Assembly: GCA_964430255.1 (NCBI GenBank)
Contig: CAYSEK010000001.1
Span: 1 to 38,974 of the forward strand
Direction of reading: 5' to 3'
Length of the DNA stretch: 38,974 nt
Origin: an uncultured Candidatus Saccharibacteria bacterium
GTDB lineage: Bacteria; Patescibacteriota; Minisyncoccia; Phycocordibacterales; UBA1539
A program made the position numbers and the translations under genes. This document shows, piece by piece, positions 331 through 29,900 of this stretch (position 1 is the stretch's first letter; the number at the start of each line of letters is the position of its first letter). Under the pieces are notes generated by a model. It searched no databases, was not told the origin of the DNA, and saw nothing but the letters and a program-made list of their open reading frames with translations.

Positions 331-390
331 ATGAGTGAATCATTCACAAGTGATGTTGTTGTTGCCTATTTTACCCACCACTTTTACGAG

Positions 391-418: not shown

Positions 419-420
419 AT

Positions 421-1980: not shown

Positions 1981-1987
1981 AATTATT

Positions 1988-2446: not shown

Positions 2447-2477
2447 GTTTTAATAATACATTAATATTTGTAAATAA

Positions 2478-2509
2478 AAAACCCTCTTACAAAATAGTAA
2501 GAGGGTTTT
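2478..2509 (-). terminator. Intrinsic terminator after the 223-aa gene
   Basis: 13-bp stem aaaaccctcttac / gtaagagggtttt. On the minus strand it is followed by a T-run (A-run 2474-2480 on plus). Confidence 0.7.
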
Positions 2510-2521
2510 GTGGGTTGATGC

Positions 2522-3193
2522 TTAGCCCACTGCACTTTTCTGCACATCGGAAGCCAAAGTTCCATACCCATTAAAGGCATAATAAACTTCAGTTGATATT
2601 AATGCAGAAGCAAGGAACTTCATCTGAAAGTTATTCCATGCAGTGTAGAGCTTTGCAAACTCAACCTTGAAGTTGTTAACTTGATTCATTTCTACAACTT
2701 CCAGTACGACACCTGCTTGCGCCGCTTTTTGAAGATCAGTAATTTTTTGCTTCAACATCGCGGTTAAATTACTAAGTTCGTGCACGTCATCCTGAAAATC
2801 ACTCAGCACTCCATAAAAAGTACAAGATTTCATTTTTTGTAAAATCTTGTTCCAAGTATCTTCGCTTAGCGCACCTTTTTCGGCAAGAGAAGCACCTATT
2901 GCAGGCAGGTTGATACGATTAAGCGTTGGCAAATCTTGGTATTTTTGAATATCCATTTCTGCACGAAGGTCTTGCATGGTTGCTTGCAGTGTTTGCAAGT
3001 GCTCTGATGACAGATTGAGATGTTTAAGTATATCATCAATATTGCCAATTTCATCATTGAGTTCAATGAGAAGCAAATCTTCAAGTGCAACATTTGCAAG
3101 TTGGAATTCTATAAACGCAAGACTTGCTGCACGAGACATAAGCGTCGAGATTGCCAGATATTTCCGACAAGGTTGATGATTTTGACCACCCAT
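2522..3193 (-). CDS. Hypothetical all-helical cytoplasmic protein, no recognisable family
   Basis: 223-aa ORF. AGGAG (3201-3205) lies 7 nt upstream of the ATG. It has its own terminator. No signal peptide or TM, no catalytic motif recognised. Visibly less AT-rich than its neighbours. Confidence 0.75.
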   Translation of the reverse strand: MGGQNHQPCRKYLAISTLMSRAASLAFIEFQLANVALEDLLLIELNDEIGNIDDILKHLNLSSEHLQTLQATMQDLRAEMDIQKYQDLPTLNRINLPAIGASLAEKGALSEDTWNKILQKMKSCTFYGVLSDFQDDVHELSNLTAMLKQKITDLQKAAQAGVVLEVVEMNQVNNFKVEFAKLYTAWNNFQMKFLASALISTEVYYAFNGYGTLASDVQKSAVG

Positions 3194-3350
3194 AATATTT
3201 CTCCTTTGCTTAAAAGGTAAAGTTGAACAAATTTGTCAATTGAGAATGAACAATCACTCCTAATAACACTATTACATAAAACATAGCAAAAAAACAACCT
3301 AAATTGGTAATGTATGACTACACCTTAAAAAAGAAGTGGATATGGCATTA

Positions 3351-3690
3351 TTGACTAATTTCTTATCCATCACCGCTTTTTTCTTGCTCCATATTAAATT
3401 CGGAGTTTACTCCGAAGCAAACAAAACAAGAGCCGGCTACGCCGGCTCTTGTTTTGTTTAAGTTTAACTACTGCCCCAGTAAAACATTCTACCTTCGGTT
3501 GTTATTTTACCTAGTAATTCCTCAACCTATCAGCCTTATCATGTACGCGTATCTTTTCAAGTGCTTTCGCTTCTATCTGTCTAATCCTCTCCCTTGTAAC
3601 ACCAAACTCACTACCTACCTCCTCAAGTGTATGCATTATACCGTCAACAAGTCCATGTCGCATCTCTAATATCTTTCGCTCTTTTAACGA
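3351..3690. repeat. Right copy of the ~340-bp diverged direct repeat (continuous with intact rpoD)
   Basis: See 1..338. In the 180 coding nt I count 28 differences by hand, affecting 23 codons, of which 21 are synonymous. Confidence 0.85.
3423..3455 (-). terminator. rpoD intrinsic terminator
   Basis: Stem aaaacaagagccggc / gccggctcttgtttt, loop tac, 55 nt downstream of the rpoD stop, T-rich after the stem on the minus strand. Confidence 0.7.
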
Positions 3691-4755
3691 AAGATCATCC
3701 AGTATTTCTTTTATCTGGTCTGAAAGAATCCTTCTTGAAGAATCCTGATCAGGAGAAAGTATTTTATCGTCGGCGATGAACTCTCCAAGAGTTGATTTGT
3801 CATCGTCATCACCGATAGGTTTTTCAAGTGATATGGTATCTTGATCGATCTTTTTAATTATATGGATTTTACTTACATCAAGACCCATCTCAGTAGCTGT
3901 CTCCTCGGGCAATGGCTCTCTACCAAGATCTTGCGCCAATCGCCTCGTTACTTGTTTGTATTTTGAAATAGTCTCAACCATGTGAACAGGAATACGTATT
4001 GTGCGTGATTGATCAGCAAGAGCTCTTGTTATCGCTTGTCTTATCCACCATGTAGCATAAGTTGAGAACTTATACCCTCTTTCCCATTCAAACTTATCTA
4101 CCGCTTTAAACAATCCTAAATTCCCTTCCTGTATAAGGTCAAGAAGTGTTAGGTCAGGACTTCTGCCTGCGTATTTTTTTGCAATTGAAACCACAAGCCT
4201 CAGGTTGGCTCTTGCAAGTAGATTCCTTGCCTCTTCTTCCCCTCTTTCAATTCTCTGAGCTAATTCTTTCTCTTCTTGTGCTACCAGCAGTGGATACTGA
4301 CCTATTTCTTTAAGATACATCTGGATTGAATCATGCCGAGTAGACCCCCTTGAATATGAATATTTTTTAGTTAACACTTCTTCCTCTCCAGCATCCAAAA
4401 GCCCCCCACTATCAAGTACGTCTATTTTATGATCACCAAATTTCGTATACAACACATCTAAAGAGACAATATCATCTTCTATATTTGGAAATTCTTTTAA
4501 AAGCTCATCATATGTTATAAAGCCTCGATCTCGCCCTTTTTTTACAAGAATATTCGCTTTTTCCTCAAAAGATTTTCCTTTTTTACGAGATTTTACAGTT
4601 TTTTTAGATTTAGCAACCTTCTTGACGGCTTTCTTAACAACTTTCTTTACTGTCTTTTTTGTCTTTTTCACAGGTGTTTTTTTAGCCACCTTTTTAACAA
4701 CTTTTTTTGTTTTAACAACTTTCTTTTTTGTTGTTTTTTTTGTACTTTTGGGCAT
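3511..4755 (-). CDS. rpoD: Primary-type RNA polymerase sigma-70 factor with lysine-rich N-terminal tail
   Basis: 414 aa. Region 1.2 [11 protein letters not shown]. Region 2 [37 protein letters not shown]. Region 3 IRIPVHMVE. Region 4.2 [20 protein letters not shown]. The first ~60 residues are K/V/T repeats. Confidence 0.95.
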
Positions 4756-4793: not shown

Positions 4794-6515
4794 TTATTTC
4801 AATTCATTTATTTTTTTTGAAATTTCCTGACATTTTTTCAACGTATCATTTATCAATTCAGTCTCGCCTTTATTCTCAGATATGCGAAGTTTTTCCATTG
4901 CTTCGGCAAGTTCTTCTTTCAGTGTCTCCTCTTCCATGTATTTCATAAGCTCATTGAACTCTTCGTCAATATTTTTCATGTCGCCGTAATAAACTTCTAC
5001 TTCAAAAATAAATTCTTTCTTATCATCTTCGTTCAAATCCTGCATTGTTTTAAAAGCATCTTCGCCAACAATATTTTTGTATTTTTCTTTACATTCTTTA
5101 ATATTTAAAATAGGCTCTTTGACCTCTTCTTGTAAAAAAATTAATCCAAGTATTTTTCTTTCCACCATTTCTTTCCTTGTGCCTTTTGCGCTATTGCTCT
5201 GCGTCACCGGCGGATTCGAGACAGTATCACTTTCGATATTTTTTGAAATGCTACGCAACTCCTCCCATATAGGTTCATCAGATATTCCAAGCTTCCGTGC
5301 AACCTCCGATACAAAATGTGCCTGATTTATTTTGTTCTTCAACCTGGCAATATAAGGCAAGACCATCTCGCCAACCTTAACACGAAAAGCTCTTTGGTCC
5401 ATATCTTTTCTTGAAAGAACATCCAAATAAAAATCAATTATATGCTGCGCGTCTTCTAGAATGTTTCCCCACTTGTCCTTATCTTTTAGAATAAGATCCG
5501 CAGGATCAAGCCCTGATGGCAAAAGAGCAACTCTTACATCAAACCCTAGAGACAATGCGATGTCTACTCCTCTTTTTGAAGCAGACATGCCGGCATCGTC
5601 AGGATCAAACGCAATAATCAAATTATCAGAAAGTCGCTTTATTAAATTCAGATGCTCGCTCGTAATAGCAGTACCCGATACGGCAACAGTATTTTCAAAC
5701 CCTGCTTGATGAGACATCAATATGTCCATTTGCCCTTCTACTAACACGCAAGATCCAGATCTTCTAATGGCCACCTTTGCTTTATCAAATCCATATAATA
5801 TTTTTGATTTATTATACAGACTTGTCTCTGGACTATTTACATATTTTGCTTGCTGTATAGAGTCAGACTTTTCGCCACTTGAATCAAATATCCTACCCGA
5901 AAAACCTACGACTCTCCCTGAGCTATCAAATATTGGAAACATTATCCGAGAGCGAAATCTATCATAATACCCCTTATCTCCTTTTATTGTAAGACCTGCT
6001 TTTTCAATGACAGCCTCACTGTACCCTTTTGTTTTCAAAGAATCATACAATGCGTTCCATTGATCTAACGCATATCCGAGTCTAAATTTCTTCGCGGTTA
6101 TACCAGTCAACCCTCTGTCTTTCAAATATAAGGCTACATCTTTTTGGACTTTTAAATTTTGTTCAAAAAAACGTGTTGCCTCTTCGAGTACGGCGAACAA
6201 TTTTTCTTTCTCTGACGTCTGCGCGCGATCTGTTCTCTTTATTTCAACCCCAGCCTTATCAGCAAGGACCTTGAGTGATCCTGAAAAATCAAGACCTTCT
6301 ATCTCCTGGATAAAACTAAAGATATCGCCACCCTTACTGCACCCAAAACAATGATATGTTTGACGAGATGGTGACACGAAAAATGAGGGTGTTTTTTCAT
6401 TATGGAAAGGGCAGCAAGCTTTAAGATTGCTGCCAGCGTTACCAAGCTTCAGATATGTTCCAATCACCTCCGTGATATCAAGTCTCTCTTTGATTTGTTC
6501 GACAGTAGATGACAT
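4794..6515 (-). CDS. dnaG: DNA primase
   Basis: 573 aa. CHC2 zinc finger [32 protein letters not shown] motifs VLVEGQMD and AFDPDDAG. Confidence 0.95.
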
Positions 6516-6540
6516 ATAACAATGATATTTAATCTATTAT

Positions 6541-6572
6541 CCGAGTAAACCTCCTTTTTGTGGTTTACTCGG
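6541..6572 (-). other. 11-bp-stem hairpin between rpoC and dnaG (function unknown; no U-tract)
   Basis: ccgagtaaacc / ggtttactcgg with a 10-nt loop. Not followed by a T-run on either strand. Confidence 0.4.
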
Positions 6573-6625
6573 CATGTCTTATATATACTCTTTGAACAAG
6601 CATCGCATATTACATGCACAAAAGA

Positions 6626-9600
6626 TTACTCTTCTGTTTTTTCCTCATCTTCACCATCTTTAGATTCATCTTTTCCTCCCTTAAATCCTGTTCCTGCGGG
6701 GATGCGTCTTCCTATTATCACATTTTCCTTTAATCCTCGCAGAGTGTCTACCTTTCCTTTAACAGCTGCATCAATAAGTATACGAGTCGTATTCTCAAAC
6801 GATGCCGCAGACAACCAACTTTTTGTAGTAAGTGCAACATCTGAAATTCCTAAAACAACTGCATCAGCTTGCGCCTCTTCACCTCCCTCATCTTTAACTC
6901 TTTTGTTTTCTTTTACAAACTCTGCATACTCAACAACCTCACCTATAGCAAACTTTGCGTCTCCTATCTCTTTTATTTTTCTTCTGGAGAACATCTGCCT
7001 TATAATCACCTCGATGTGTTTCCTGGCGATAGATGCACCCTGAAGTTCATAAATCTTATTTATTTCATTGATGATGTAATTTTCAGCTCTATCTTTTCCT
7101 CCGTATTTAAACATCTCAGCTATATCTGCAGAACCATCGGTCAACAGGTCACCCTTTTTTATCTTGTCTCCAACTTTTACAAGTGACATTCTTTTTGGAA
7201 GAACATAATGTTCGATTTTTTCATTCTTTTTTGATTTTCCTTCTCCAACATCAGGGAGTACAACTATTTTCTTTCCCTCAGGAGAATCCTCTATCTCAAT
7301 CACTTCTCCGTCCACGCTACTAATAATAGCAGCACTCTTAGGAATACGCCTTTCAAACACTTCTTCAACACGTGGAAGACCTTGTGTAATATCTCCACCT
7401 ACTGAAGCAATACCACCTGCGTGGAACGTCCTCATAGTAAGCTGTGTTCCTGGCTCTCCAATCGCTTGAGCTGCAATAATACCTACAGCCTCTCCAAGCT
7501 TAATAAGCTTGTTTCTACCGGTATCAAGACCGTAACATGTCCTACATACACCATAAGACGATTTACACGTAAGAGGTGAACGAACATATGCTTCTTCAAC
7601 TCCAGCTTCTTCAATCTCTTGTGCGTCTTTTTTGTGCAACAGTGCACCCTTTTTAAAGATAACTTTACCTTTACTATCTACAGCATCTTTGCTCAATATC
7701 CTTCCACGAATATTTTTTGAAATAGGTATTTCAAACCCAACAAGATTTTCGGCAGTAACTCTTTTACCTTCTTTCTCCTTACAATCTTCTTCAGAAATAA
7801 TTGCATCCTGCGCAACATCTACAAGTCTACGTGTAAGATATCCCGCTTTTGCAGTATTAAGCGCTGTATCGGCAAGACCTTTTCGGGAACCATGAGTAGT
7901 AACAAAATATTCTATCGGAGAAAGACCTTCTTTTGAAGATGGGATAATCGGGAAATCGATAGTACGACCTGCTGTGTTCACAATAAGACCTTTCATCCCT
8001 GCCATCTGAACAATCTGCGAGATGGAACCCCTAGCACCAGAATTAAGCATGTCACTAACAGGACCATCTGGGTCTAACGTTGCTGGTATTACTTTTTCTA
8101 TTTCATCTTTTGCCCCCTGCCATACTTCTATTGTCTTTCTGTATCTTTCTTCTTCAGACAAAAGACCTTCTCCAAATTGAGCTGAAACCTCATCTGCTTT
8201 TTCTCTTGCAGCAGCAATAATACCTTTTTTCTCTTTTGGTACACTAACCTCATCAAGTGCCCAAGTAATACCCGACCTTGTAACATATTTATATCCAAAA
8301 TCTTTTATCTTGTCTAAAATTGCCGGAGTTGCATCAAATCCATAATATTCTATCATGTCATTTACTATGCCCGCCAATACTTTCTTATTTATCTCTCCGT
8401 TTATATATGCAAAATCTGAAGGCAAGACACTGTTAAAAAGAAGTCTCCCAACTGTCGTTTCAAAAGGCTTTCCTTCAAATTCTGCATACTTCGGACCATC
8501 CGTAGGAAGCACTTTGATCTTTGTTCTAAATCCAACTATATCAAAATCATAAGCAGTAATCGCATTATTGGGTGAAGGGAAAATTTTTCCCTCACCTTTA
8601 TCGCCATCTATAATCTTTGTCATCCAGTAACATCCAAGAACAATATCAAGTGATGGATTAACGATTGGCTCACCATTTCCAGGACCCAATAGGTTCTTGT
8701 TGGCAGCCATCAGCTCTCCAGCTTCTTTTTGCGCCTCCTTTGAAAGAGGAACATGTACCGCCATCTGGTCTCCGTCGAAGTCCGCGTTAAACGCTGAACA
8801 AACAAGTGGATGAACTTGAATAGCGTTACCCTCGATCAAAATAGGGTTAAACGCCTGAATTCCCAATCTGTGCAAAGTAGGAGCACGGTTAAGTAATACA
8901 TATTTATTTTCTATCACCTCTTCAAGAATAGCCCACACTTCTGGTTCTTTTTCATCAATAAGTTTTCCGGCACCTCTTATGTTGAAAGCTAGTTCTCTGT
9001 CAAGTATTTTTGATATAACAAATGGTCTGAAAAGTTCAAGTGCCATTTTCTTTGGTAGTCCACATTGATTCAATTTCAAAGTTGGACCCACAACAATCAC
9101 AGACCTTCCGGAATAATCAACGCGTTTACCAAGAAGATTCTGCCTGAAAAGACCTTGCTTCCCTTTCAAGGAATCAGCTAGGGACTTAAGAGCTCTTTTC
9201 TGCGCCTGACTCATTACAGTAGACTGTGTTCTTCTTATTGAGTTGTCTATAAGAGAGTCTACAGCTTCTTGCAGAATTCTTTTTTCATTTCGTAAAATAA
9301 CTTCGGGTGCTCCAATGTCTTTCAACTTTTTCAATCTGTTATTTCTGTTTATAACACGCCTATACAGATCATTAACATCTGAAGTCGCATGTCTTCCACC
9401 CTCAAGAGCAACCATCGGACGAAGTGCCGGTGGTGTTATCGGAATCACAGTAAGAAACATCCACTCCGGACGCACACCTGAATTAATAAGCGATTTCACA
9501 AGACTTATTCTTTTCTTGAGTTTAGGTTTTTCAACAGCACTTGCACCGTCAACTTTTGAAATAAGTTCTTCTAAAAGTTTTTCGAGGTTAAGTTTTTTAA

Positions 9601-13484: not shown

Positions 13485-13642
13485 ATATAAAGCAAAAAAC
13501 AGGGTAAACGTACCCTTTATTAATTAGTATGTATAAAACTAGCTAGTAATAAATTTATTTAGCAAAATAGCTAGGACTGTTATTAAACTTCTTTAAAACG
13601 AGGAGAATCACCATTAACTCAATCTTTCAAGCATTGACAACG

Positions 13643-13670
13643 ATTATACTCATAATGAATCTTTTGTCAA
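13643..13670 (-). promoter_or_regulatory. Consensus sigma-70 promoter upstream of rpoB
   Basis: Minus strand reads TTGACA - 16 nt - TATAAT (ttgacaaaagattcattatgagtataat), about 150 nt upstream of the rpoB ATG. Confidence 0.65.
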
Positions 13671-13715
13671 TTATCCCAAATACAATATTGGGGATAACTT
13701 GTACTTATTAAATAT

Positions 13716-14510
13716 TCAGAAAAACAAAGACCCTATCATCAATAAACCAAATATCAAAACAAAATATGCAAAATTAACTTTCTTCGCAACCTTAAACAAA
13801 ACATGTATAGTCGCCACTCCAAAAATAAACGAGAAAAAGAAACCAAAAAGATTTTCAGACGTCAGATTAAAATCTTTAATATTTAAAAGAACATTCCCTG
13901 CCAACACTATTGGTATGCTCATAAGGAAACTGAGTTTCAAAGCATACTCTTCATCAAACTTCCTCAAAAGCAAAGATGCAACAGTAAGTCCTGACCGAGA
14001 AAGCCCAGGAAGTGCGGCGAAACCCTGGACTACGCCCAACACGAGACCGTCAGACATTTTAATATCTTTAGATGTTCTAATAGAAGTTACTTTGCTTTTT
14101 TTAAACTGTAAGTACGCTGTTATAAGAAGGAGTACTCCTATTGTAAAATTCACAACATCAGATGAACCCCCTAAAGCATTCTCTGCTCCAGAAAGTGTTT
14201 TGAGTAATATTAAACCAAACACTCCACTTATCAATGTTGCGATAAAAAGAAAATTAAATATCTTTTTATTTTCTTCTGTAGCGCTTTTATAATTAAAAAG
14301 AGTTTTGAATATTTCCACTACATCTTTTCTAAAATATACAACAGCTGCCAAAGCAGTACCGAGATGCAAAAAAAGGGCAAATTTTATGATATCTTCAAGC
14401 CCTCCCCCGCCAAAAAAATTTACCTTAATCAAAACAATAACACCCTCCGAGCTTACAGGAAGCCATTCCACAATACCTTGAATTATTCCAAATATTATTC
14501 CCTCCAACAT
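13716..14510 (-). CDS. uppP: Undecaprenyl-diphosphate phosphatase (BacA/UppP)
   Basis: 264 aa polytopic membrane protein. N-terminal IIQGIVEWLPVSSEG and central ALPGLSRSG motifs typical of UppP. Confidence 0.9.
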   Translation of the reverse strand: MLEGIIFGIIQGIVEWLPVSSEGVIVLIKVNFFGGGGLEDIIKFALFLHLGTALAAVVYFRKDVVEIFKTLFNYKSATEENKKIFNFLFIATLISGVFGLILLKTLSGAENALGGSSDVVNFTIGVLLLITAYLQFKKSKVTSIRTSKDIKMSDGLVLGVVQGFAALPGLSRSGLTVASLLLRKFDEEYALKLSFLMSIPIVLAGNVLLNIKDFNLTSENLFGFFFSFIFGVATIHVLFKVAKKVNFAYFVLIFGLLMIGSLFF

Positions 14511-14547: not shown

Positions 14548-14581
14548 AAAAACACTAGACGTCGGACGTCTAGTGTTTTTA
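14545..14581 (-). terminator. Intrinsic terminator after the first MazF gene
   Basis: Stem acactagacg / cgtctagtgt (14552-14576), loop tcgga, flanked by an A-run and a T-run. Starts at the stop codon. Confidence 0.7.
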
Positions 14582-14911
14582 TAATTTCAACATATTTTTT
14601 AAAATTATATTGATTTTCTTTTGCATCTCTCTGTTTATCCTTCCAACAACCTTTGTAATTCTTGTTTTGTCTACTGCCTTGATATGAAAAATCAGAATTG
14701 CTGATTCTTGTGCAAGATTGTTGTACTTGTCTGGTAAAATTGCCAAAACATAAGGAAACCTTAGTGCTTCAAGATTTGTAGTAAGAGGAATCACTACCGC
14801 AATATCTGTTTTTGTATTTGAAATTAAAACTGCCGGTCTTTCGCCATATTGCTCACGACCGGCACCTTCAGATAAATTTACAATACAAACATCCCCTTTC
14901 TTCATTTTCAT
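14579..14911 (-). CDS. mazF: MazF/PemK-family type II toxin (endoribonuclease), module 1
   Basis: 110 aa. KGDVCIVNL...GREQYGERPAVLIS and IPLTTN core typical of PemK/MazF. ATGA overlap with the upstream antitoxin ORF. Confidence 0.85.
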   Translation of the reverse strand: MKMKKGDVCIVNLSEGAGREQYGERPAVLISNTKTDIAVVIPLTTNLEALRFPYVLAILPDKYNNLAQESAILIFHIKAVDKTRITKVVGRINREMQKKINIILKNMLKL

Positions 14912-15114
14912 ATTCTTTTCTCAAACTCTAAAAGGTCTTTGTTGGATATTTTTTCCCACGCGTTAAGTTCTTTATTTAATTCTCGTTTACCCTGCAAAGA
15001 ACTAGCGTAATATAAAGTCGCATTGATCAAAAAATCTTCCTTTGAAATACCTATTTCACGAGAAGCGATGGATAGCTCTTTTTCTATTTTTTTGGGAATA
15101 GTTATTGTTGCCAT
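14908..15114 (-). CDS. Ribbon-helix-helix-like antitoxin, module 1
   Basis: 68 aa. N-terminal beta strand TITIPKKIEKEL followed by two helices. 4-nt overlap with the toxin gene. Confidence 0.7.
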   Translation of the reverse strand: MATITIPKKIEKELSIASREIGISKEDFLINATLYYASSLQGKRELNKELNAWEKISNKDLLEFEKRI

Positions 15115-15123
15115 AATATATTA

Positions 15124-15151
15124 AGTATAGTCTTAAGCCAAAAATTTGCAA
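15124..15151 (-). promoter_or_regulatory. Promoter of TA module 1
   Basis: Minus strand TTGCAA - 16 nt - TATACT, then 9 nt to the ATG. The -35 overlaps the left arm of the 18-bp hairpin. Confidence 0.5.
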
Positions 15152-15154
15152 AGA

Positions 15155-15247
15155 TAGTGGTCAACGTGGCAGGTTGACCACTATCTTTGCCTTCTCTCCA
15201 CTCCTCTATCTTCTTATAATTTCCTGAGAGGAGCACTTTGGGGACTA
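15155..15247. repeat. Distal copy of a ~90-bp diverged direct repeat (hairpin + trmD 3' end); partner 16029..16118
   Basis: Shared string tagtggtcaacgtggcaggttgaccactatct...tccactcctcta...cctgagag...gggact. In this copy the hairpin stem is extended to 18 perfect bp (15148-15190: gcaaagatagtggtcaac / gttgaccactatctttgc). Confidence 0.85.
15181..15246 (-). pseudogene. Orphan 3' fragment of trmD (about 20 codons)
   Basis: Hand translation VPKVLLSGNYKKIEEWREGK versus the intact TrmD C-terminus VPKVLLSGDHKKIEEWRKGR*. A 2-nt indel puts the stop out of frame. No upstream part is present. Confidence 0.8.
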
Positions 15248-15249
15248 CG

Positions 15250-15346
15250 AGCAAAACCCACCCTAAAAATGCAAGAATCCGCTGGGGGGGGGTGAACGAG
15301 GTCGAACCTCGTTCATTTTCTTGTACATTTTTTGGGGTCAGACCCC
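15250..15346 (+). mobile_element. Possible relic of an IS3-family right end (transposase C-terminus + terminal inverted repeat)
   Basis: The plus-strand frame reads ...RIRWGGVNEVEPRS..., resembling the ...LGGLSPVEYR... transposase tail. It is followed by tgtacattttttggggtcag, resembling IS150-group terminal repeats (..TTTTTGGGGTCAG..). This rests on recollection only and needs an ISfinder search. Confidence 0.3.
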
Positions 15347-15374
15347 TTTGTTTCAGTTTGTACGTTTCCGAGCC

Positions 15375-15716
15375 CTACGTCGTTAGTAAAACATCCCTAA
15401 GTCCATCAAATACTGATTTTAATTGCGAGGTAGAAATATTGCCGATTTTCTTCGTAAGCCTGTCCTGAGAAATCGTTCTAATTTGGAATGTTAAAATTTC
15501 TGAATCTTTTTTTAAACCATTATGTTTTGATTTTAAAAGCACAACACAGGCGGGATACTCTTTTACCTGTCCACTTATTGGACAGACAATACAAATAGGC
15601 ATATTGTCATTCATTGCTCCCGCGGAAATCACTACCACAGGTCTTTTGCCCGCTTGCTCAGACCCCTTCGATGGATTTAAATTAGCCCAGAAAATATCCT
15701 TTTGTTTTATTTTCAT
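15375..15716 (-). CDS. mazF: MazF/PemK-family type II toxin, module 2
   Basis: Start at internal ATG 15716 (MKIKQKDIFWANLNPSKGSEQAGKRPVVVIS...), 1 nt after the antitoxin stop. The longer ORF-track start (15806) would overlap the antitoxin gene. Confidence 0.85.
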   Translation of the reverse strand: MKIKQKDIFWANLNPSKGSEQAGKRPVVVISAGAMNDNMPICIVCPISGQVKEYPACVVLLKSKHNGLKKDSEILTFQIRTISQDRLTKKIGNISTSQLKSVFDGLRDVLLTT

Positions 15717-15717
15717 A

Positions 15718-15957
15718 TTATTTAACAATATCAGAGTAGTCATCCATCCCCCATTCTGCAAATTCCAATGTACCGCTATCAAGCGCAGCCCTTTTAAATC
15801 CATCACGCATTTGTTTTTGCTTCACTTCTTTTTTATACCGCAAAAGCGCATCCTCCAAAACCTCTCGGCGAGTACATTTTACCTTTTTTGCGTATGCGTT
15901 CACCCAATCAATAACCTCAGGTGAGATTGTGCTGGTAAATACTTGGGTTGTTTTCAT
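15718..15957 (-). CDS. Ribbon-helix-helix (CopG/Arc-like) antitoxin, module 2
   Basis: 79 aa. ISPEVIDWVNAYAKKVKCTRREVLEDALLRY fits the RHH beta-alpha-alpha pattern. Acidic C-terminal tail. Immediately upstream of the toxin. Confidence 0.75.
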   Translation of the reverse strand: MKTTQVFTSTISPEVIDWVNAYAKKVKCTRREVLEDALLRYKKEVKQKQMRDGFKRAALDSGTLEFAEWGMDDYSDIVK

Positions 15958-15968
15958 GATAAGTATAT

Positions 15969-15993
15969 TTTATATGTATAATTTATATGTATA
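15969..15993. promoter_or_regulatory. Operator-like 12-bp direct repeat in the TA module 2 leader
   Basis: tttatatgtata at 15969-15980 and 15982-15993, directly downstream of the -10 element. This is the typical position for RHH autorepression. Confidence 0.45.
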
Positions 15994-16020
15994 TAATACC
16001 CAAACACAAAACCATGTCAA
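15993..16020 (-). promoter_or_regulatory. Promoter of TA module 2
   Basis: Minus strand TTGACA - 16 nt - TATTAT (ttgacatggttttgtgtttgggtattat). Confidence 0.6.
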
Positions 16021-16028
16021 CCTTGGTT

Positions 16029-16118
16029 TAGTGGTCAACGTGGCAGGTTGACCACTATCTCCCCTTTCTCCACTCCTCTATTTTCTTATGGTCTCCTGAG
16101 AGAAGAACTTTTGGGACT
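16029..16118. repeat. Proximal copy of the trmD-end direct repeat (continuous with intact trmD)
   Basis: See 15155..15247. The hairpin gtggtcaac-gtggcag-gttgaccac (11-bp stem here) contains the trmD stop codon. Confidence 0.85.
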
Positions 16119-16690
16119 TTATAGTTTTTATTTTTGTACTTAACGACCTCTGGTCGTGTGTACATTTCAGAACTTGATATTCTTTTTTCTTCCAGTGATT
16201 CGCTATGCCCAAGCACTCCGGGAATCTGTCGCGATATTGCGTCCACCACAACCATCGCTGGCACTTCCCCTCCGGTAAGTACGTATGGACCGATAGATAA
16301 CTCCTCCGCCTTTAACACTTTTTTTACTCGCGCGTCTACCCCCTCATAACGTCCAGCTATTAAAATAATATCTTTATATTTTTTTGAAAGTGTCTCTGCG
16401 TAAATATTCGTAAACTGCTTACAGGAAGGTGAGAACATAATTATTTTTACGTTCTTCTTTCTCCCACGCGCTTTCGCAACTGCACGCAATATTGGGTCTG
16501 CCTGCATCACCATTCCCGGACCACCGCCGTATGGACTGTCGTCAACTTTTTTATGTTTATCTTTTGTAAAATCGCGAGGGTTGTAAAATTTTATATTTAT
16601 CAACTTTTTTTTCTGTGCCCGCAGAAGAATAGACTCGTCTGTGTACGAGCGAAACATTTCTGGGAAAATTGTAATAATATGGAATATCAT
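16055..16690 (-). CDS. trmD: tRNA (guanine37-N1)-methyltransferase
   Basis: 211 aa. Motifs DDSPYGGGPGMVM and IAGRYEGVDARV. C-terminal LLSGDHKKIEEWR. Confidence 0.95.
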   Translation of the reverse strand: MIFHIITIFPEMFRSYTDESILLRAQKKKLINIKFYNPRDFTKDKHKKVDDSPYGGGPGMVMQADPILRAVAKARGRKKNVKIIMFSPSCKQFTNIYAETLSKKYKDIILIAGRYEGVDARVKKVLKAEELSIGPYVLTGGEVPAMVVVDAISRQIPGVLGHSESLEEKRISSSEMYTRPEVVKYKNKNYKVPKVLLSGDHKKIEEWRKGR

Positions 16691-16729: not shown

Positions 16730-16778
16730 AAGGTTCGACCTTTCTCCGTCACTTCGCTCCTCCTTAAGGTCGAACCTT
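16730..16778. repeat. 13-bp perfect inverted repeat with GGTTCGACC core, 23-nt loop
   Basis: aaggttcgacctt (16730-16742) / aaggtcgaacctt (16766-16778). A related palindrome gaacgaggtcgaacctcgttc lies at 15296-15316. Confidence 0.7.
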
Positions 16779-16867: not shown

Positions 16868-17188
16868 TTAAGCTTTAAGCTCTTCCATAGCCTGATCAAC
16901 ACTAGCAGTTGCGGTTGCAGTTGCAGTGTTTGGACCTCTTCCGCCTTCCGGCTCGTTGATCTTTAGGTTAACACGAGCGTCATTTTTCATACCCACTACA
17001 CGAAGAAGTGTACGGATAGCTTTCGCTGTGTTTCCTGATCGTCCGATGATTTTGCCCATATCGTCTGGATGTACATCCAAAGTGATAAGAACACCCATCT
17101 CGTCAACAGTCCTCTCAACCTTTACGCTGTCAGGATTGTCAACTAATTCCTTTACAACGAATTCTAGAAATTGTGCGTCTTTTTCCAT
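16868..17188 (-). CDS. KH-domain RNA-binding protein (YlqC/UPF0109 type)
   Basis: 106 aa. GKIIGRSGNTAKAIRTLL carries the GXXG KH motif. This is the usual partner of rpsP and trmD. Confidence 0.85.
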   Translation of the reverse strand: MEKDAQFLEFVVKELVDNPDSVKVERTVDEMGVLITLDVHPDDMGKIIGRSGNTAKAIRTLLRVVGMKNDARVNLKINEPEGGRGPNTATATATASVDQAMEELKA

Positions 17189-20278: not shown

Positions 20279-20320
20279 TTATTCAGCTTTTTTCTTCCCG
20301 CTTATCGGCGGGACTTCGGC

Positions 20321-20908
20321 TTACGCCTCAGCTTTTACTTCTTCTTTTGTTTCCTCTTTGGGAGCTTCGGGTTTTTCCTTGGCTTCCTCTTTAGGTGTTT
20401 CTTCCTTTACTTCTTCTTTAGGAGTTTCGGGTTCTTCTTTAGTTTCCTCTTTGGGTGTTTCTTCTTCCTTAGCTTCTACTGGAGCTTCCTCTTTAGTCTC
20501 TTCTGTTTTCTCTTCGGGCTCTTCTGTTTTAGTTTCTGCTGGAGCTTCTTTCCCGCTCTCAGACGGGACTTCGGCATCCGCCTCAGCTTTTGCTTCCTGT
20601 GCTTTCTTCTCTTCCTCTGTAATTTCCTTTACTATAGGACTTTTCTTTGGAAGTACGTTTATTTTCTTACCTTCTATTATCTTTTCCCTTATGAGCAGGT
20701 TGTGCATCGTGTCAGAAACCTGCGCACCTACAGACATCCAGTGCTTAACTCTATCACCATCTATCTGAATCTCATTTGAATGAGGATTATATGAACCAAT
20801 AAGCTCAACATTGTCGCCACTTTTTGGCCCTCTCTTTGAGTCAGTAACAACAATCCGAAAAGCCGGGTTGTTCTTCCTTCCTACTCTTTGTAGTCTAATC
20901 TTTAACAT
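20321..20908 (-). CDS. rpsP: 30S ribosomal protein S16 with ~105-aa acidic E/K/P/T-rich C-terminal extension
   Basis: Start at ATG 20908 (MLKIRLQRVGRKNNPAFRIVV...), the canonical S16 N-terminus. The ORF-track extension to 21118 has no S16 similarity and would overrun the promoter. Confidence 0.9.
   Translation of the reverse strand: MLKIRLQRVGRKNNPAFRIVVTDSKRGPKSGDNVELIGSYNPHSNEIQIDGDRVKHWMSVGAQVSDTMHNLLIREKIIEGKKINVLPKKSPIVKEITEEEKKAQEAKAEADAEVPSESGKEAPAETKTEEPEEKTEETKEEAPVEAKEEETPKEETKEEPETPKEEVKEETPKEEAKEKPEAPKEETKEEVKAEA
20324..20641 (-). repeat. Coding low-complexity repeat (PKEE[TV]KEE-like units) forming the S16 tail
   Basis: Reiterated ttcctctttgggNNcttc / ttcttctttaggag units on the plus strand. 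Bracketed by a ~48-bp relic duplication (about 20295-20343 and 20548-20597). Confidence 0.7.
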
Positions 20909-20915
20909 GGCGCAT

Positions 20916-20944
20916 ATACTACCAAAAGACTGACAAAAGGTCAA
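20916..20944 (-). promoter_or_regulatory. rpsP promoter placed for a leaderless transcript
   Basis: Minus strand TTGACC - 17 nt - TAGTAT - 7 nt (atgcgcc) - ATG. No SD. Confidence 0.55.
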
Positions 20945-20952
20945 TATTTCTT

Positions 20953-20980
20953 TTGCTGACAGTAAATATTGATGTATACT
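20953..20980 (+). promoter_or_regulatory. Divergent promoter candidate for the small-membrane-protein/bPH_2 operon
   Basis: TTGCTG - 16 nt - TATACT, then 9 nt to ATG 20990. Confidence 0.4.
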
Positions 20981-20989
20981 AATTAGTAC

Positions 20990-21241
20990 ATGTTCCCTGG
21001 AATACAAAAAACTGCAGAGGTAGCGATAAGCATCGCAATAAGCCCAAAAATCCTTTGGATAACATTTGGGGTTGTGTTTTCCCTTGTTTCGATTATGAGT
21101 ATTATACTTTTTTACCACTGGAAATCTTACGGATTCAAGCCTGTAAAAACAGGGCTTATGGGCATTCTTTACTTTGCAGGACTGCTTATTCTATTTGGTG
21201 TTATGTTTTTTGCCATAATCTCTTACACAGTATCATTATGA
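20990..21241 (+). CDS. Small two-TM membrane protein
   Basis: 83 aa with two hydrophobic helices (ILWITFGVVFSLVSIMSIILFY and LMGILYFAGLLILFGVMFFAII). ATGA overlap with the next gene. The exact start is uncertain. Confidence 0.55.
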   Translation: MFPGIQKTAEVAISIAISPKILWITFGVVFSLVSIMSIILFYHWKSYGFKPVKTGLMGILYFAGLLILFGVMFFAIISYTVSL

Positions 21242-26901: not shown

Positions 26902-29900
26902 TTACTTATTAATAATAAAAGTTCTTCCACTTGTTCTCCCAAAGAATTCCGGGTTGTATAGTTCACTTGCGGATGCGGGTAAGTGCTGGAAAACTCCCGG
27001 CACAAGCGCGCGTGCATAATATTCATACACATATAATCCTGGACTAAGCTTTTCGCTAAATAGGAAGATACGATCATCGTGAAATTCTTTAAAATTCGGG
27101 CGGTATGTTTTATTGTATACGTTTGTTGTTACCCCTTTTTTATTACGGCTGTCTTTGTAAACTTCTACCTCTTCCATGTCTTTGAACTGCTGTGTTTTCA
27201 TAAACAGAGATACGTTGACCGGTTCTTCAGGTTCGTACTGTGTGCTATCTATAGCGCTATCGAGTGCAATTTTGTCTTCTGTAGCAAGTGTAAAATTAAT
27301 TGGCTCCAAACCTGCCGGCAACACATCTTCCAATCCAAACAAATGCATTGTTTTTGTAGAATTGAATACAATCCGACCAACCACAACATCTCCAACTTTT
27401 GCTTCTCTGAGAGGCTCTGTGCGGGCGGTGTCATTGATTGAATAAAATTGCCTATCTATACGCACCCCCTCATCACGCGCTGGAACAATATCACGGTCTA
27501 AATAATATTTCATTGATATATCATAGTAGAACGTATCTGCTCGGTCACCGCGCGCTACTCGCTGGAAGAAAATATCTTTCTTTTCTCCAAGCCCTAAATC
27601 TTCAAAACTTATATTTGTTTCAAATCCATAAATTCTACTATCTTTTTGCGTATCATATTTCCCTACTGGTTCTTCATTCAGTGAAATATTGAGTTCATAA
27701 TCTGCATTCTGTTCATCTTTCCAAGTAATGTACTGGGAAAGAGTTTGTACCATTACTTGAGTGGTGTTTGTATTGATCCACGCGCCATTTTGGTAGCGTT
27801 GAGCAAGTAACCACTTAAGAATATTTTTGTATTCTTTATGTGGTTTTTTTTGCTTCATAATTGCCTGCAAAACCAATGCGGTATTTTTCACGCCTGTTTC
27901 ATAATAATCTTTTTGTATATTTTCACGATTGCTTTTTACAAACACACCATCAACATCCAAGCCAAGACGTCTGTCAATCTCTTTCCACACATTACGCCTA
28001 TCCCAAAATCGAAGCCTATCAGAAAGAAGTGCTGCGTAACCAAGTCCTGTACTACTGATATTTTTTAAATTCTTTTTTGTGATACCAGCTCTTATCGCGC
28101 TTATTTGTCTGTTCACAGATTTTGGCGTTGGGTCAATATTTGTAAGTGGATATGTTGCAGCAAGAAGATTGTCCAATGCATATATGTTCTTTTTGTATTG
28201 GCTTTTGTCTACTTTGATTTTCTTGCTCTCTTTTAAAACATACGCCAGTACGGCATCGTAACTTGATTGATTAATACCTACTCCCGCAGTACGCAACTCT
28301 TCAAACACAGAGAGAATATGCAATGAAAGGCTGAAATTTGGCTCAAGTCCATTGTAGTATGCAAAACCTCCACTACTTGTCTGCGTTTCGTAAATGCGCG
28401 CTAATCCTGTTTCAATAGCCTCATCTACGGTGTACAAGACGCCTCGAAATTCTATAGTGTCGATTGCGAACTCTTTGCCAATGTTCTCTATATTGGCGGC
28501 AGCTACCACTGTCGCAAGCGTACTGATCTTACTTGCAAGCTGTTCACTGCACCCATAAGGAAAAGCTATCATATAATTAAGCGAGTCTTCCAAGAACGCT
28601 GCGACTGTGGAGTTAGCACGAATTTTTAACCCACCAGCGTTTGCATGAATATTTTCCGGTGTATAAATTTGCGCTGTGGCAGTATCTCCGTCGGCAAAAG
28701 AAGCGAGACTTACTGTTTCATAGGTGGTATTTTCCGTGATAGGAATTATTTTTTCAACAGTATCTTCAAAACCAAAACCCTTTGCGGAAAGAAGCACAGT
28801 GTGTGTACCAGCCTCTTTACCCAAAGGCGCGCGTACTTTAGCATACACAGTTTTTGAGCTTCCACTCGGTATATAATGCACCGAGCGTGCCTTCCCAATC
28901 ATTTCCAACGTATCACTTTCAAATGATACGGAAATATTTTGCGCTTGCCGTGTCTGATTCATCACCAAAGCCCCAATTTCAAATTCATCACCGGGAATAA
29001 TAAATCGTGGCAAAAGAGGAAGTGTCATAATTTTTTTCTTCTCTTCAAACTCCAAATAATCTACTCCGACTTTAGTATCTTTTGTAATACCTATTGTTTC
29101 TATGCGCCATTTGGTTAGATTATCTGGAAGTGTAAATGTTATCGTGCCATATCCATTTGCGCCGGTAAGAACTTTAGCACTCCAAAAAGCAGTGTCTTTA
29201 AAAATACCTCTTTTTTTCTTTTCCAAATCACTTACTGACCCACCACCACCTTTGGTGCCGGTTGGTATTTCAATCTCCTCATGAACATGCTTCAGGTTTG
29301 AACTAGTAATCACTCCGTGAGGCAAGCCTGAATAGAAAAACTCAAGGGGTTTACGCACAGGATTACCTTTTAGCGCCAACACGCTCATATCAACCACAGC
29401 AACAGACACTTCAGCCGGCATCGGCGCGCCGGCGCGCGAGGTCGTATAAATATCCAAAGTAACCCGCTCGCCCGGAATGTATGATTGCTTATTACTCAAA
29501 ACATTAATATTAAGCTCTTTATTTTTACGATTTATATTGAGACGCACTTCTCCGTATTTTATCTCCGGTTCCGGAGAAAGCAACACTACACTTACCACCA
29601 CATTTGGAATATGCTCATCTCGTATTCTAAAATCATAATCAAAAAAACTTCGCTCTACATCAATCACTTCATAGTCCATCACAGTACCACGTTCTACAGT
29701 AACCAGCGCTTTTGCTTTTTGATATGGTGATTGAATGATAATCTTCGGCGCATCTCCCACATCGTAATCTTTTTGCTCTACGGCAATGTCAAGAGTTCTG
29801 TCATTTGAAGGTTTTACCGAAACAACATCGTCTCCATACACATACAATGTACGTTGTGACCACAATGCATTACCCCGCGCATCTTTCCCACTCAGTGTAA

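Follow-up and report, generated by a model that had tools for sequence, protein, structure and literature searches.

A displaced trmD end and its hairpin

How did the last codons of an essential gene, trmD, come to lie a second time beyond a toxin–antitoxin (TA) module, and is the repeat the footprint of a dedicated insertion mechanism? In the window (the whole stretch of 38,974 nt analysed here), positions 15155–15247 repeat positions 16029–16118, and each copy comprises 20 trmD codons and a 29-nt hairpin (HP). The repeat was proposed in an initial annotation of this DNA and is confirmed by a repeat search and by alignment. The search of the window returns two blocks, 15190–15246 against 16062–16118 (57 nt, 84%) and 15155–15196 against 16029–16070 (42 nt, 90%), and the 2-nt offset between them is the 2-nt indel of the alignment. 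All genes, promoter-like sites and trmD-derived features described below lie on the reverse strand. Intact trmD (16055–16690; Pfam tRNA_m1G_MT, E 4.4e-44) encodes 211 aa, the length found in close relatives, and ends in VPKVLLSGDHKKIEEWRKGR*. Its last 20 codons and the proximal HP (16029–16057; 11-bp stem, 7-nt loop, −20.1 kcal/mol, without a T tail) make up the proximal repeat copy at 16029–16118, delimited by repeat search and alignment; the stop codon, TAG at 16055–16057, lies inside the HP stem. The displaced trmD 3′ fragment at 15186–15246, found by alignment and translation, carries 20 codons that read VPKVLLSGNYKKIEEWREGK, and its TAG is out of frame. On the hairpin with the stop codon in its stem, both translations, the 7 differences within a 38-nt ungapped stretch and the indel, the initial annotation proved accurate.

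HP has the form TAGTGGTCAAC-GTGGCAG-GTTGACCACTA. Its 29 nt are without difference between the two directly oriented copies, and it has no third copy within the window, where shuffled sequences give an expectation of 0 matches. The identical stretch around HP spans 31 nt, against 18% difference in the adjoining coding part (p ~0.005 under uniform divergence). Fragment and intact end differ at 11 of 60 nt, and 7 of these 11 differences fall at third codon positions, a weak bias (p = 0.039). Because the differences are mostly of this kind, the fragment is judged to be an ex-functional diverged allele, once the end of a working trmD in another lineage.

The distal HP (15148–15190) is a perfect 18-bp stem with a T-rich tail (−37.2 kcal/mol, z = −7.9), in which the last codons of the fragment, GGCAAAGATAG, pair perfectly with the downstream flank, CTATCTTTGC. 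This extension had been noted previously, as had its overlap with the −35 of the neighbouring TA promoter, and both hold, the promoter being a consensus match only. From its structure, we read the distal HP as an intact native terminator, and the pairing of the last codons with their own flank shows that the distal copy and this flank form one colinear native unit. A crossover within HP would have split the two halves of the 18-bp stem, which argues against such a crossover. HP is present at the trmD end of the relatives L082, L168 and L085 and is confined to trmD ends in the fetched sequences. The compensatory arm change of the L168 hairpin and the presence of HP at empty sites indicate that it is native to the trmD end and is not the end of an element.

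Two dissimilar TA modules and the DNA between them

The module enclosed by the two trmD ends, TA2, has a promoter-like site at 15993–16020 (TTGACA-16-TATTAT, 11/12; a consensus match only), a candidate antitoxin of 79 aa (antitoxin-2, 15718–15957) and the toxin MazF-2 (15375–15716), whose full-length match to Pfam PemK_toxin (PF02452, E 2.5e-28) spans 15375–15719. The MazF-2 start codon is corrected here to 15716–15714, and a gap of 1 nt separates the antitoxin stop codon from this ATG. The extent of the cassette shared between strains is 15327–16037, its left limit being the HP right arm and its right limit the point at which the window and L167 diverge. Beyond the fragment lies TA1, with a promoter-like site at 15124–15152 (TTTGCA-17-TATACT, likewise only a consensus match) whose −35 overlaps the foot of the distal stem, a 68-aa candidate antitoxin-1 (14908–15114) that overlaps the start of the toxin by 4 nt, and MazF-1 (14579–14911; full-length match to PF02452, E 9.8e-19). 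By their PemK/MazF domains, both toxins are predicted to belong to type II MazEF/PemIK modules. Both candidate antitoxin genes lie immediately upstream of their toxins in a translationally coupled arrangement. Neither antitoxin matches a family or fold in Pfam, NCBIfam, PADLOC or PDB, which lends no support to the RHH label of the initial annotation. MazF-1 and MazF-2 are 33% identical and the two antitoxins show no similarity; a weak 32-nt similarity connects the two antitoxin/toxin overlaps (repeat D15).

Downstream of MazF-2 are a small hairpin predicted by folding (GGGGTCAGACCCC, 15334–15346), a terminator-like hairpin on the forward strand (U, TGAACGAGGTCGAACCTCGTTCA, 15293–15315) with a G9 run ahead of it (15284–15292), and a 36-nt stretch (15248–15283) at whose low-coordinate edge we place a putative novel joint. 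U is also present in L082 and in the distant relative L090 (TrmD identity 65%), where 27 nt are identical directly before a trmD fragment; it has no match in viral contigs. Among the fetched loci, the 36-nt stretch matches only L171, which has the same haplotype, and its reading as the 3′ end of a convergent gene X of L082/L170 was rejected because the translations disagree. The right edge of the variable region is a terminator hairpin with A/T tracts (T, CACTAGACGTCGGACGTCTAGTG, 14548–14580) ahead of uppP (BacA; 13716–14510). T lies directly 3′ of HP in the empty-site relative L082 and flanks other cargo in L082 and L167/L170.

No recombinase was found in the cargo, as had been stated before, or elsewhere in the window, and the window offers no tRNA, tmRNA or Rfam element as an integration target. 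The earlier description of the cargo stands for the MazF toxin, which Pfam supports, and for the promoter-like hexamers. It fails for a proposed IS end relic (15248–15374), which nothing supports: terminal repeats are absent and the only match among fetched loci is the same haplotype.

Empty sites and alternative haplotypes in close relatives

A search for empty sites, suggested as a check on the original proposal, was successful in several close relatives. The order is trmD–HP–133 nt–uppP–rpoB in L168, trmD–105 nt–uppP in L173 and trmD–HP–18 nt–T in L082, and rpoB lies directly 3′ of trmD in L174 and L083/L084. Relative to these relatives, the cargo is an insertion. The arrangement of the window itself recurs in L171, an independent assembly with 6 SNPs that is collinear with window positions 15614–13532 (99.7%) across MazF-2, U, the trmD fragment, HP, TA1 and uppP, including the distal junction.

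In another strain (L167/L170), the TA2 cassette (98.3%) occurs without a trmD fragment; after it come a copy of the right arm of HP, a spacer and T. MazF-2 is 98.3% identical at the nucleotide level between the window and L167, which matches the window only down to 15326 and has a right TA2 junction different from the window's. The order trmD–HP–TA2 is natural in the contigs L001, L177 and L167. Comparison of L177 with L001 gives ~86% for trmD and then 96–100% from the HP right arm onward, and the TA2 cassette is 96–100% alike between lineages whose trmD differs by ~14%. In L082, 3.4 kb of cargo are bracketed by copies of the unit formed by HP right arm, spacer and T. Since the distal copy is native and trmD–HP–TA2 occurs naturally elsewhere, we infer one novel joint, at ~15246/15248, and not two.

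The region around uppP, rpoB and TA2 is a mosaic. Between the window and L170, uppP is 100% identical over ~800 nt (14381–13582), rpoB ~89% and TA2 98%, and the step from uppP to rpoB points to homologous exchange nearby. The V3 junctions share CAAT microhomology (TTGCAAT joined to GTTGACCAC and CCCAAT joined to CTTGACTAC), which fits the expectation for illegitimate joins. Exact UppP and MazF-1 look-ups for a parental haplotype, trmD(NY...REGK)–HP–TA1, returned the same haplotype or contigs broken at the hairpin, and a homologous crossover partnering the illegitimate joint was not located.

Displaced ends at rpoD and in other lineages

The window contains a second scar, at rpoD, and the initial annotation had raised the possibility of a junction core common to both loci. 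There is none: the two hairpins are unrelated, and the rpoD repeat is at least 345 nt long and extends well beyond its terminator. The rpoD copies differ at 28 of 183 nt, with 23 of the 28 differences at third positions (p = 1.5e-7), 3 of 61 aa changed and the stop codon retained.

A metagenome scan with TrmD, used for statistics, gave relatives of at most 74% identity among the matches listed. In the sampled Paceibacterota, trmD-to-rpoB synteny is found in 101 of 171 loci, with a spacer of 107–4490 nt. The 133 spacer ORFs match 62 Pfam families, many of them TA parts, and no integrase or recombinase is among the 25 families listed of these 62. A regular-expression scan for tyrosine/serine recombinase motifs was negative, a weak test run without a positive control.

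The initial annotation had suggested a search of relatives for orphan 3′ ends, and the layout of gene, cargo and displaced end was indeed found at trmD in other Paceibacterota, namely L021/L106, L022, L040 and probably L090. The fragment starts ~20 codons before the end of the gene in L021/L106, where the cargo is a Y1 transposase, and ~14 codons before it in L022, where the cargo is a RelB/YafQ-ParE-like pair with a collagen-like ORF. In L040 it starts at −73 codons, and the cargo comprises a PemK/Phd pair and, besides other ORFs, a truncated one that, by eye only, resembles the N-terminal HTH of an IS transposase. In L090 it starts at about −56 codons, and we read the cargo by eye as a DinJ/RelB-like antitoxin ORF followed by a YafQ-like frame with internal stops. 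The trmD copies of L040 differ at third positions in 20 of 27 cases (p = 1.8e-5). By this measure the rpoD and L040 fragments, like the trmD fragment of the window, are ex-functional alleles. In the distant L021 the fragment begins at the same codon as in the window, the V of VPKVLLSG.

Y1_Tnp genes follow trmD in L004, L009 and L021, with flanking inverted hairpins in the two loci inspected (L004, L021), and occupy the opposite strand of the trmD–rpoB spacer in L105 and L109. The element is ~78% alike in L021 and L004, as diverged as trmD itself, which indicates that it is old and vertically inherited and has not been recently mobile. A true diversity-generating retroelement (DGR) lies downstream of trmD in L031. 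Scars number two in the 39 kb of the window, compared with a handful in 1.46 Mb of related loci.

Origin of the arrangement

The trmD repeat is most likely a recombination scar rather than the footprint of a new dedicated insertion machine. We regard the trmD–(uppP–)rpoB stretch as a strain-variable accessory hot spot of a CPR (Paceibacterota/Nomurabacteria-like) lineage and the arrangement in the window as a scar of sequential (C-terminal) displacement, a reading that we hold to be probable, if only just. At the locus are an intact gene, cargo and a displaced fragment with the older module, and breakpoints and cargo vary among events. A first segment (trmD, HP and TA2) would have been joined to DNA of a second lineage, ~12–18% different in the joined stretch, by a single illegitimate joint at ~15246/15248; the second segment would begin 20 codons before its own trmD end and run colinearly through the 18-bp terminator, TA1, T and uppP. 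The simplest process would be homology-facilitated illegitimate recombination (HFIR) of incoming DNA. Homology to conserved core genes in the flank would anchor one end of this DNA; the other would form an illegitimate joint within the resident trmD end or immediately behind it, and the older gene end, together with the older TA module, would be shifted downstream and not replaced. The DNA may have been taken up by competence, and the resident partner is assigned provisionally. Retention of TA1 may have been favoured because loss of an addiction module would be counter-selected, and the resulting repeats could later act as substrates for homologous cassette swapping. Sequential displacement has been proposed for T6SS effector–immunity arrays and Rhs (PMC5361080), and Patescibacteria possess competence and homologous-recombination genes (PMC12455944). 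Since neither the parental haplotype nor the partner crossover was found, HFIR is deduced here and not demonstrated. The identical 31 nt at the hairpin require of displacement an extra assumption, whether gene conversion, selection or a role of the hairpin, and the start codon shared with L021, the left limit of TA2 at the hairpin and the identical, distant U hint at a preference for a site or structure. Against displacement stands also the high number of scars, two in 39 kb.

A rival view is dedicated, hairpin-targeted insertion. Recombinase-less cassettes such as TA2 would be put at terminator hairpins or 3′ ends by an enzyme acting in trans, either a Xer-type tyrosine recombinase on the 11-7-11 palindrome or an HUH Y1 transposase on single-stranded hairpins, and the duplicated hairpin would be the recombination site. 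HP is a perfect palindrome of this layout whose 7-nt centre is asymmetric, and its two copies are identical and in direct orientation; however, it stands at empty sites with a compensatory change in L168, as a native structure would, and both complementary 18-bp flanks are at the distal copy, so that a crossover in HP is not the origin. In two trmD lineages the left limit of the recently shared TA2 falls within HP, in its loop or right arm, a second right-arm copy follows the cassette in L167 and the L082 cargo sits between bracketing units, but the right boundary of TA2 varies between haplotypes and fragment lengths vary among lineages. Y1_Tnp genes occur after trmD or in the spacer, as described above, yet the L021/L004 element is old and no recombinase is present in the window or in the listed families of the spacer ORFs. 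The 100% identity of U beside a trmD fragment in a relative with 65% TrmD identity also speaks for such insertion, and the unrelated rpoD hairpin and long rpoD repeat speak against it. Overall, we consider this explanation unlikely. Of the recurrent, trans-mobilised insertion first proposed, the insertion relative to empty sites, the recurrence at trmD and the sharing of TA2 between lineages survive; mobilisation in trans with att-like junctions is not supported, given TA2 without a fragment, the single joint and the varied start points. The wider proposition that core-gene terminator hairpins in Paceibacterota are genuine recombination sites for promoter-bearing, recombinase-less cassettes moved in trans, at which the HP-delimited TA2 edge, the bracketing units, the L021 start codon and U hint, is in our judgement quite unlikely. 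Its candidate enzymes would be the hairpin-flanked Y1 HUH transposases found after trmD or a Xer-type recombinase, and if true it would amount to an integron-like cassette system without the integron platform.

It is likewise quite unlikely that one replacement of ~12 kb (~15246 to ~3345: uppP, rpoB, rpoC, dnaG, rpoD and downstream cargo) by DNA of a ~15% diverged relative, with illegitimate joins at both ends, made both scars at once. The trmD and rpoD pairs are similarly diverged (11/60 and 28/183), both bear a signature of purifying selection, their orientation fits a single block, and two scars in 39 kb contrast with the very few in 1.46 Mb of related loci. In transformation, illegitimate joining at both ends happens far less often than at one end, and this replacement would require it. 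The comparison with L170 (uppP 100%, rpoB 89%) moreover places extra homologous breakpoints inside the block, and so the block is not one clean unit.

A decayed site-specific integrative element that had supplied a substitute 3′ end and lost its integrase, a CIME-like remnant with the repeats as attL and attR, would account for the layout of gene, cargo and displaced diverged fragment, for the intact gene, for the synonymous type of the differences, as expected of a functional substitute end, and for recurrence of the pattern at trmD in several lineages. We regard it as improbable, since neither the 780-nt cargo nor the vicinity of trmD (~170 loci, with a weak motif test) contains an integrase or its remnant, the same cassette is found without a fragment and with a different right junction in L167/L170, and the fragment start points are inconstant. 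The identity core expected at the 5′ edge is absent (6 + 5 identical bases), the identical block being instead the hairpin on the 3′ side. The distal copy and TA1 form a colinear native unit.

An assembly chimera of two co-occurring strains might be suspected from the several close haplotypes in the sample (L001, L177, L167) and from three Logan contigs that end exactly at the hairpin; with L171, from another assembly with 6 SNPs, collinear across the locus, and with the joint 15246/15248 not at a shared k-mer, which makes a graph mis-join there implausible, it is most improbable. An in-situ tandem duplication of trmD end, hairpin and TA module followed by divergence is barely credible: it would explain two tandem MazF modules, each behind a trmD-end copy, and the weak 32-nt similarity, but MazF proteins at 33% identity and dissimilar antitoxins beside a non-coding fragment at 84–90%, with differences biased to third codon positions, do not fit, and a simple tandem duplication, which the initial annotation had named as a possible refutation, is ruled out by the toxins and antitoxins. 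Finally, a DGR with the fragment as TR for the trmD end (VR) is rejected as having next to no probability, for although a downstream 3′-end repeat at ~85% is a DGR hallmark and a true DGR of such form exists in L031, the window has no reverse transcriptase or Avd, only 3 of 11 differences fall at fragment adenines, and the targets would be essential housekeeping genes.

Discussion

C-terminal displacement has been described for Rhs loci and for orphan cdiA-CT/cdiI modules (Jackson et al. 2009, PMC2935791, as cited in PMC5361080). There, a conserved body carries a new 3′ tip and linked gene, followed, as in the window, by a displaced older 3′ fragment that keeps a homology stretch and its own linked downstream gene; arrays grow by repetition, and the retained homology permits later homologous switching. 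At those loci a polymorphic toxin tip is displaced together with its immunity gene, and tip variation is the point, whereas the window has essential TrmD, near-equivalent allele tips and self-contained, predicted type II TA operons with promoter-like sites of their own. Closer still in process are the effector–immunity modules of the Vibrio cholerae T6SS, for which sequential displacement by HFIR has been proposed (PMC5361080). In both cases an acquired module lies beside a conserved upstream anchor, the old 3′ end and linked gene are kept downstream, and one homologous and one illegitimate end, with no integrase, are proposed and not demonstrated; organism, anchor gene and cargo differ, and the reason for retention is immunity in T6SS and may be antitoxin dependence in the window.

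Integrative elements offer a second comparison, and ICE and IME elements integrate at the 3′ ends of housekeeping genes. When e14 and phage 21 integrate into icd, the gene acquires from the incoming DNA a replacement 3′ end that differs mostly at synonymous sites, and the original 3′ end is left as a downstream pseudo-fragment. An essential or central gene is thus kept intact with a displaced end downstream, as in the window, but these prophage elements encode an integrase and cross over at a fixed core, whereas the window has no integrase, a 780-nt cargo, variable breakpoints and cargo that also occurs without a fragment.

Acinetobacter pdif modules, integron cassettes and streptococcal CIMEs are recombinase-less modules moved in trans, and like the window's cassette they are small, often TA-encoding and bounded by short structured repeats. 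Modules of the pdif type are flanked by inverted pairs of 11-6-11 XerC/D sites, integron cassettes lack a promoter and come with attC sites and an intI platform, and CIMEs retain att sites from a known family of ICEs. The window gives no sign of these defining features: HP belongs natively to empty sites, the cassette has a strong promoter-like site of its own and a variable boundary, and no intI was found. HP has an 11-7-11 palindromic layout in the Xer comparison; its arms GGTCAAC and GTTGACC are each one base off the integron attC core (RYYYAAC ... GTTRRRY), and it is only 29 nt long. For the IS200/IS605 or REP/RAYT type, the window contains no Y1_Tnp, and the hairpins of the post-trmD Y1_Tnp elements of other lineages are unrelated to HP.

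On our analysis, displacement at trmD is best read as a variant of the process already proposed for Rhs, CDI and T6SS arrays, and generic recombination of this kind would explain all points that stand against dedicated insertion. It would widen the idea of C-terminal displacement beyond polymorphic toxin loci to include housekeeping genes. Annotators should treat such short orphan gene ends with caution, as recombination scars rather than DGR template repeats or att sites. In the Paceibacterota loci sampled, the trmD-to-rpoB junction is a variable site, and it can therefore usefully serve as a marker to track strains and to find new TA or defence cargo. The empty sites and alternative haplotypes show that CPR bacteria gain and stack accessory modules beside essential genes without mobile-element machinery, by a route in which the old gene end and its linked module would be displaced and not replaced; a suggested reason for the stacking is that addiction modules resist replacement.

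The repeated trmD end and its surroundings

On the minus strand, khpA (16868–17188) is followed by intact trmD (16055–16690), a toxin–antitoxin (TA) module termed TA2 (small ORF at 15718–15957, PemK/MazF toxin at 15375–15716), a hairpin-bearing fragment of 20 trmD codons (trmD′; 15148–15246), and a second module, TA1 (small ORF at 14908–15114, MazF toxin at 14579–14911). A terminator hairpin (T; 14548–14580) separates TA1 from uppP, after which come rpoB and rpoC. The repeat of the trmD end is present as the initial annotation described it, in two blocks of 57 nt (84% identity) and 42 nt (90%) with a 2-nt offset. The 29-nt hairpin that holds the trmD stop codon (HP) is identical in the two copies, unique to them within the window and absent from shuffled sequence. 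A family search identifies both toxins as clear MazF/PemK proteins; for the antitoxins, previously labeled RHH, family and structure–sequence searches gave no match with either small ORF. Nothing supports the IS relic proposed for the cargo. A G9 homopolymer (C9 on the gene strand) at 15284–15292 directly adjoins U, a terminator-like hairpin in the cargo, and recurs in L171, an independent assembly. Judged by its TrmD relatives, the organism belongs to the CPR group Paceibacterota/Nomurabacteria. Elsewhere in the window, rpsP (20321–21118) encodes an S16 protein of 265 aa, versus ∼80–170 aa in relatives, with a long C-terminal extension of 60-nt tandem repeats and a 64-nt repeat pair (20295–20613), and 26902–33780 (minus strand) encodes a 2292-aa bacterial alpha-2-macroglobulin-like protein with MG2, A2M_BRD, A2M, TED and bMG10 domains, a very large gene for such a genome.

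L171, which comes from another sample, is 99.7% collinear with window positions 15614–13532 (6 SNPs), a stretch that covers MazF-2, the trmD fragment, the hairpin, TA1 and uppP. Three Logan contigs begin precisely at the distal hairpin, where a 31-nt repeat would be expected to break the k-mer graph. Empty sites, a search for which had been suggested, were found in close relatives with TrmD 86–94% identical: trmD–HP–133 nt–uppP–rpoB in L168, trmD–105 nt–uppP in L173, rpoB directly after trmD in L174 and L083/L084, and trmD–HP–18 nt–T in L082. In L168, HP carries a compensatory change affecting both arms. HP is part of the trmD end in this clade, not the terminus of an element.

A probable single novel joint and allelic gene ends

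The order trmD–HP–TA2 is a natural arrangement, as in the related loci L001, L177 and L167. At the distal copy, the final codons of trmD′ (GGCAAAGATAG) are perfectly complementary to the post-hairpin sequence (CTATCTTTGC), giving an 18-bp intrinsic-terminator-like stem with a T-rich tail; the flanks of the proximal copy lack this complementarity, leaving an 11-bp stem without a T tail. This pairing indicates that trmD′, its hairpin, the flank and TA1 form one colinear piece of a genome whose real trmD end this was. It also argues against a crossover inside the hairpin, whether by site-specific insertion or Campbell-type integration, because this would split the complementary halves between the copies. 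The sole novel joint appears to lie at ∼15246/15248.

Third codon positions account for 7/11 differences between the copies of trmD in the window (p = 0.039), 23/28 for rpoD (p = 1.5e-7) and 20/27 for trmD in the related locus L040 (p = 1.8e-5). This bias indicates that the fragments were once functional gene ends: the copies are alleles of lineages ∼12–18% apart that were recently brought together, not in situ duplicates that have decayed. The displaced rpoD end differs from rpoD at 3 of 61 residues and keeps its stop codon. The frame problem in trmD′ may reflect a 1-nt loss in the A run of an ending of the type EGKR-stop, as in a relative's TrmD (P0016).

The rpoD repeat (1–345 versus 3335–3705, with cargo at 335–3344) extends over at least 345 nt at 83–84% identity and reaches window position 1. 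It contains the last 61 rpoD codons, the stop, terminator T1, whose loop is inverted between the copies (GTA versus TAC), and part of a second terminator; its cargo comprises two ORFs without known family (223 and 152 aa) and an opposite-strand ABC-F gene. The ABC-F protein (421–1980, plus strand) scores 398.7 bits against NCBIfam NF000355, ‘ribosomal protection-like ABC-F family protein’ (curated cut-off 380 bits), and is probably an antibiotic-resistance-type translation factor within horizontally exchanged CPR DNA. The trmD and rpoD repeat pairs are equally diverged (∼15%), and both scars might be the two ends of one ∼12 kb replacement.

Recurrence at trmD and exchange of the cassette

The proposed check for further orphan 3′ ends found displaced trmD ends in four more lineages, one of them probable, among ∼170 TrmD-centered loci. 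The fragment starts ∼20 codons before the stop in L021/L106, where the cargo is a hairpin-flanked Y1 transposase; ∼14 codons in L022, with a RelB/YafQ-ParE-like TA and a collagen-like ORF; and 73 codons in L040, with a PemK/Phd TA and further ORFs, plus a truncated one that looks by eye like an IS transposase HTH. In L090, the probable case, it starts ∼56 codons before the stop, matches the gene at 100% identity and is located at the end of a contig; the cargo consists of an ORF judged by eye to be a DinJ/RelB-like antitoxin, followed by a YafQ-like frame with internal stops and then by hairpin U. An orphan-end scan of 828 long ORFs (1.46 Mb) gave as other cases only the window rpoD, an inverted case in L003 and a true diversity-generating retroelement in L031. 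The L003 case is an inverted copy (241–390) of the C-terminal end of a 523-aa ORF (435–2006), just upstream of its start, with 72% aa identity over 50 residues. The L031 retroelement (5868–8395) adjoins trmD. The 122-nt variable region in its target gene (6406–6527) is 87% identical to the template repeat (6886–7007), with mismatches at template adenines; next come an Avd-like ORF and a YADD-containing reverse transcriptase.

The trmD-to-rpoB order is conserved in 101 of the 171 loci; the spacer measures 107–4490 nt (median 745). The 133 spacer ORFs give hits to 62 Pfam families. Many of the hits are TA parts, and there are five Y1 transposases and six PaaX_M proteins; the families listed for these ORFs include no integrase. 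The IS200-like Y1 (HUH) transposase genes lie in the spacers of L004 (6650–7385), L021 (6655–7390), L009, L105 and L109. In L004 and L021 the gene comes directly after trmD with the same short hairpin inverted on each side (CTAGGC-CTT-GCCTAG, CTAGGC-AAG-GCCTAG), a REP/RAYT-like layout. These two copies look resident, not recently mobile, because they are ∼78% identical and thus as diverged as trmD.

In metagenome GCA_006243105.1, the same TA2 sequence stands behind two trmD alleles, that of L001, identical to the window, and that of L177, 92% identical in protein and ∼86% in DNA. Between L177 and L001, identity rises from ∼86% to 96–100% at the hairpin loop or right arm. L167, which overlaps L170, continues this arrangement with a TA2 that is 98.3% identical and diverges from the window at 15326. 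Past this point, a copy of the HP right arm (CTTGACTAC), a spacer and T, as in the L082 empty site, replace U, the spacer and trmD′; two other genes and then uppP follow. A CAAT microhomology is common to the L177 and L167 junctions (TTGCAAT joined to GTTGACCAC, and CCCAAT joined to CTTGACTAC). Since TA2 is shared with L177 and L167 and trmD′ is missing from L167, TA2 is a recently exchanged cassette whose ends do not include the trmD fragment. In L082, two copies of a unit made of the HP right arm (TTGACCAC), a short spacer and T (685–760 and 4140–4196) bracket a 3.4-kb cargo that encodes a PD40/WD40-like protein and three ORFs without assignment. These units represent another type of displaced repeat at this hot spot.

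Possible site preference, and tandem duplication excluded

A structure- or site-directed process would suit the identity of 31 nt around the hairpin when the coding parts of the two copies differ by 18%, the shared start codon of the fragment in the window and the distant L021, and the position of the TA2 left edge at the hairpin. It would also suit hairpin U (TGAACGAGGTCGAACCTCGTTCA; 23–27 nt), which occurs in the window (15293–15315), in L082 (2112–2134) and in the marine-sediment relative L090 (7209–7233), where 27 nt are identical despite 65% TrmD identity and U ends 6 nt ahead of another trmD fragment. We nevertheless regard such a process as unlikely. Upstream of trmD (16731–16777), a large inverted repeat is built from a U-related core, GGTCGAACC. 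The dedicated, trans-mobilized terminator-targeting system advanced in the initial annotation is not supported by the anatomy, which has one joint, a native HP and, in L167, the cassette without the fragment. Simple tandem duplication including the TA module is excluded, as the MazF pair is 33% identical and the antitoxins are unrelated, yet the non-coding fragment is 84–90% identical to the gene end. The observation itself is confirmed and survives the objections that had been raised against it in advance.

Proposed sequential displacement in a mosaic region

The data fit sequential (C-terminal) displacement, and the locus is best read as a recombination scar of a known type that appears here in a new setting. 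The model has been proposed for Vibrio cholerae T6SS effector–immunity arrays, with Rhs and CDI orphans as further suggested cases (PMC5361080). In such homology-facilitated illegitimate recombination, incoming DNA would anchor by homology in conserved neighbor genes, and its other end would form an illegitimate joint within the resident trmD end or directly behind it. A complete gene end with linked cargo would thereby arrive, shifting the older end and its linked module downstream. The parental trmD would have ended in NYKKIEEWREGK(R) and a stop, followed by the 18-bp hairpin and TA1. Recombinants that keep TA1 may have been favored, because loss of an addiction module is harmful.

The window and L170 are 100% identical across ∼800 nt of uppP (13582–14381), whereas rpoB, starting ∼100 nt further on, is only ∼89% identical. 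The sharp uppP/rpoB breakpoints point to a very recent exchange between co-occurring lineages. Genes for competence and recombination are reported in Patescibacteria (PMC12455944). The variants in L082, L167 and the window suggest that the new repeats (trmD′–HP, and HP right arm with spacer and T) may later permit homologous cassette swapping. The contrast between uppP and rpoB shows that the region is a mosaic built by frequent exchange between lineages.
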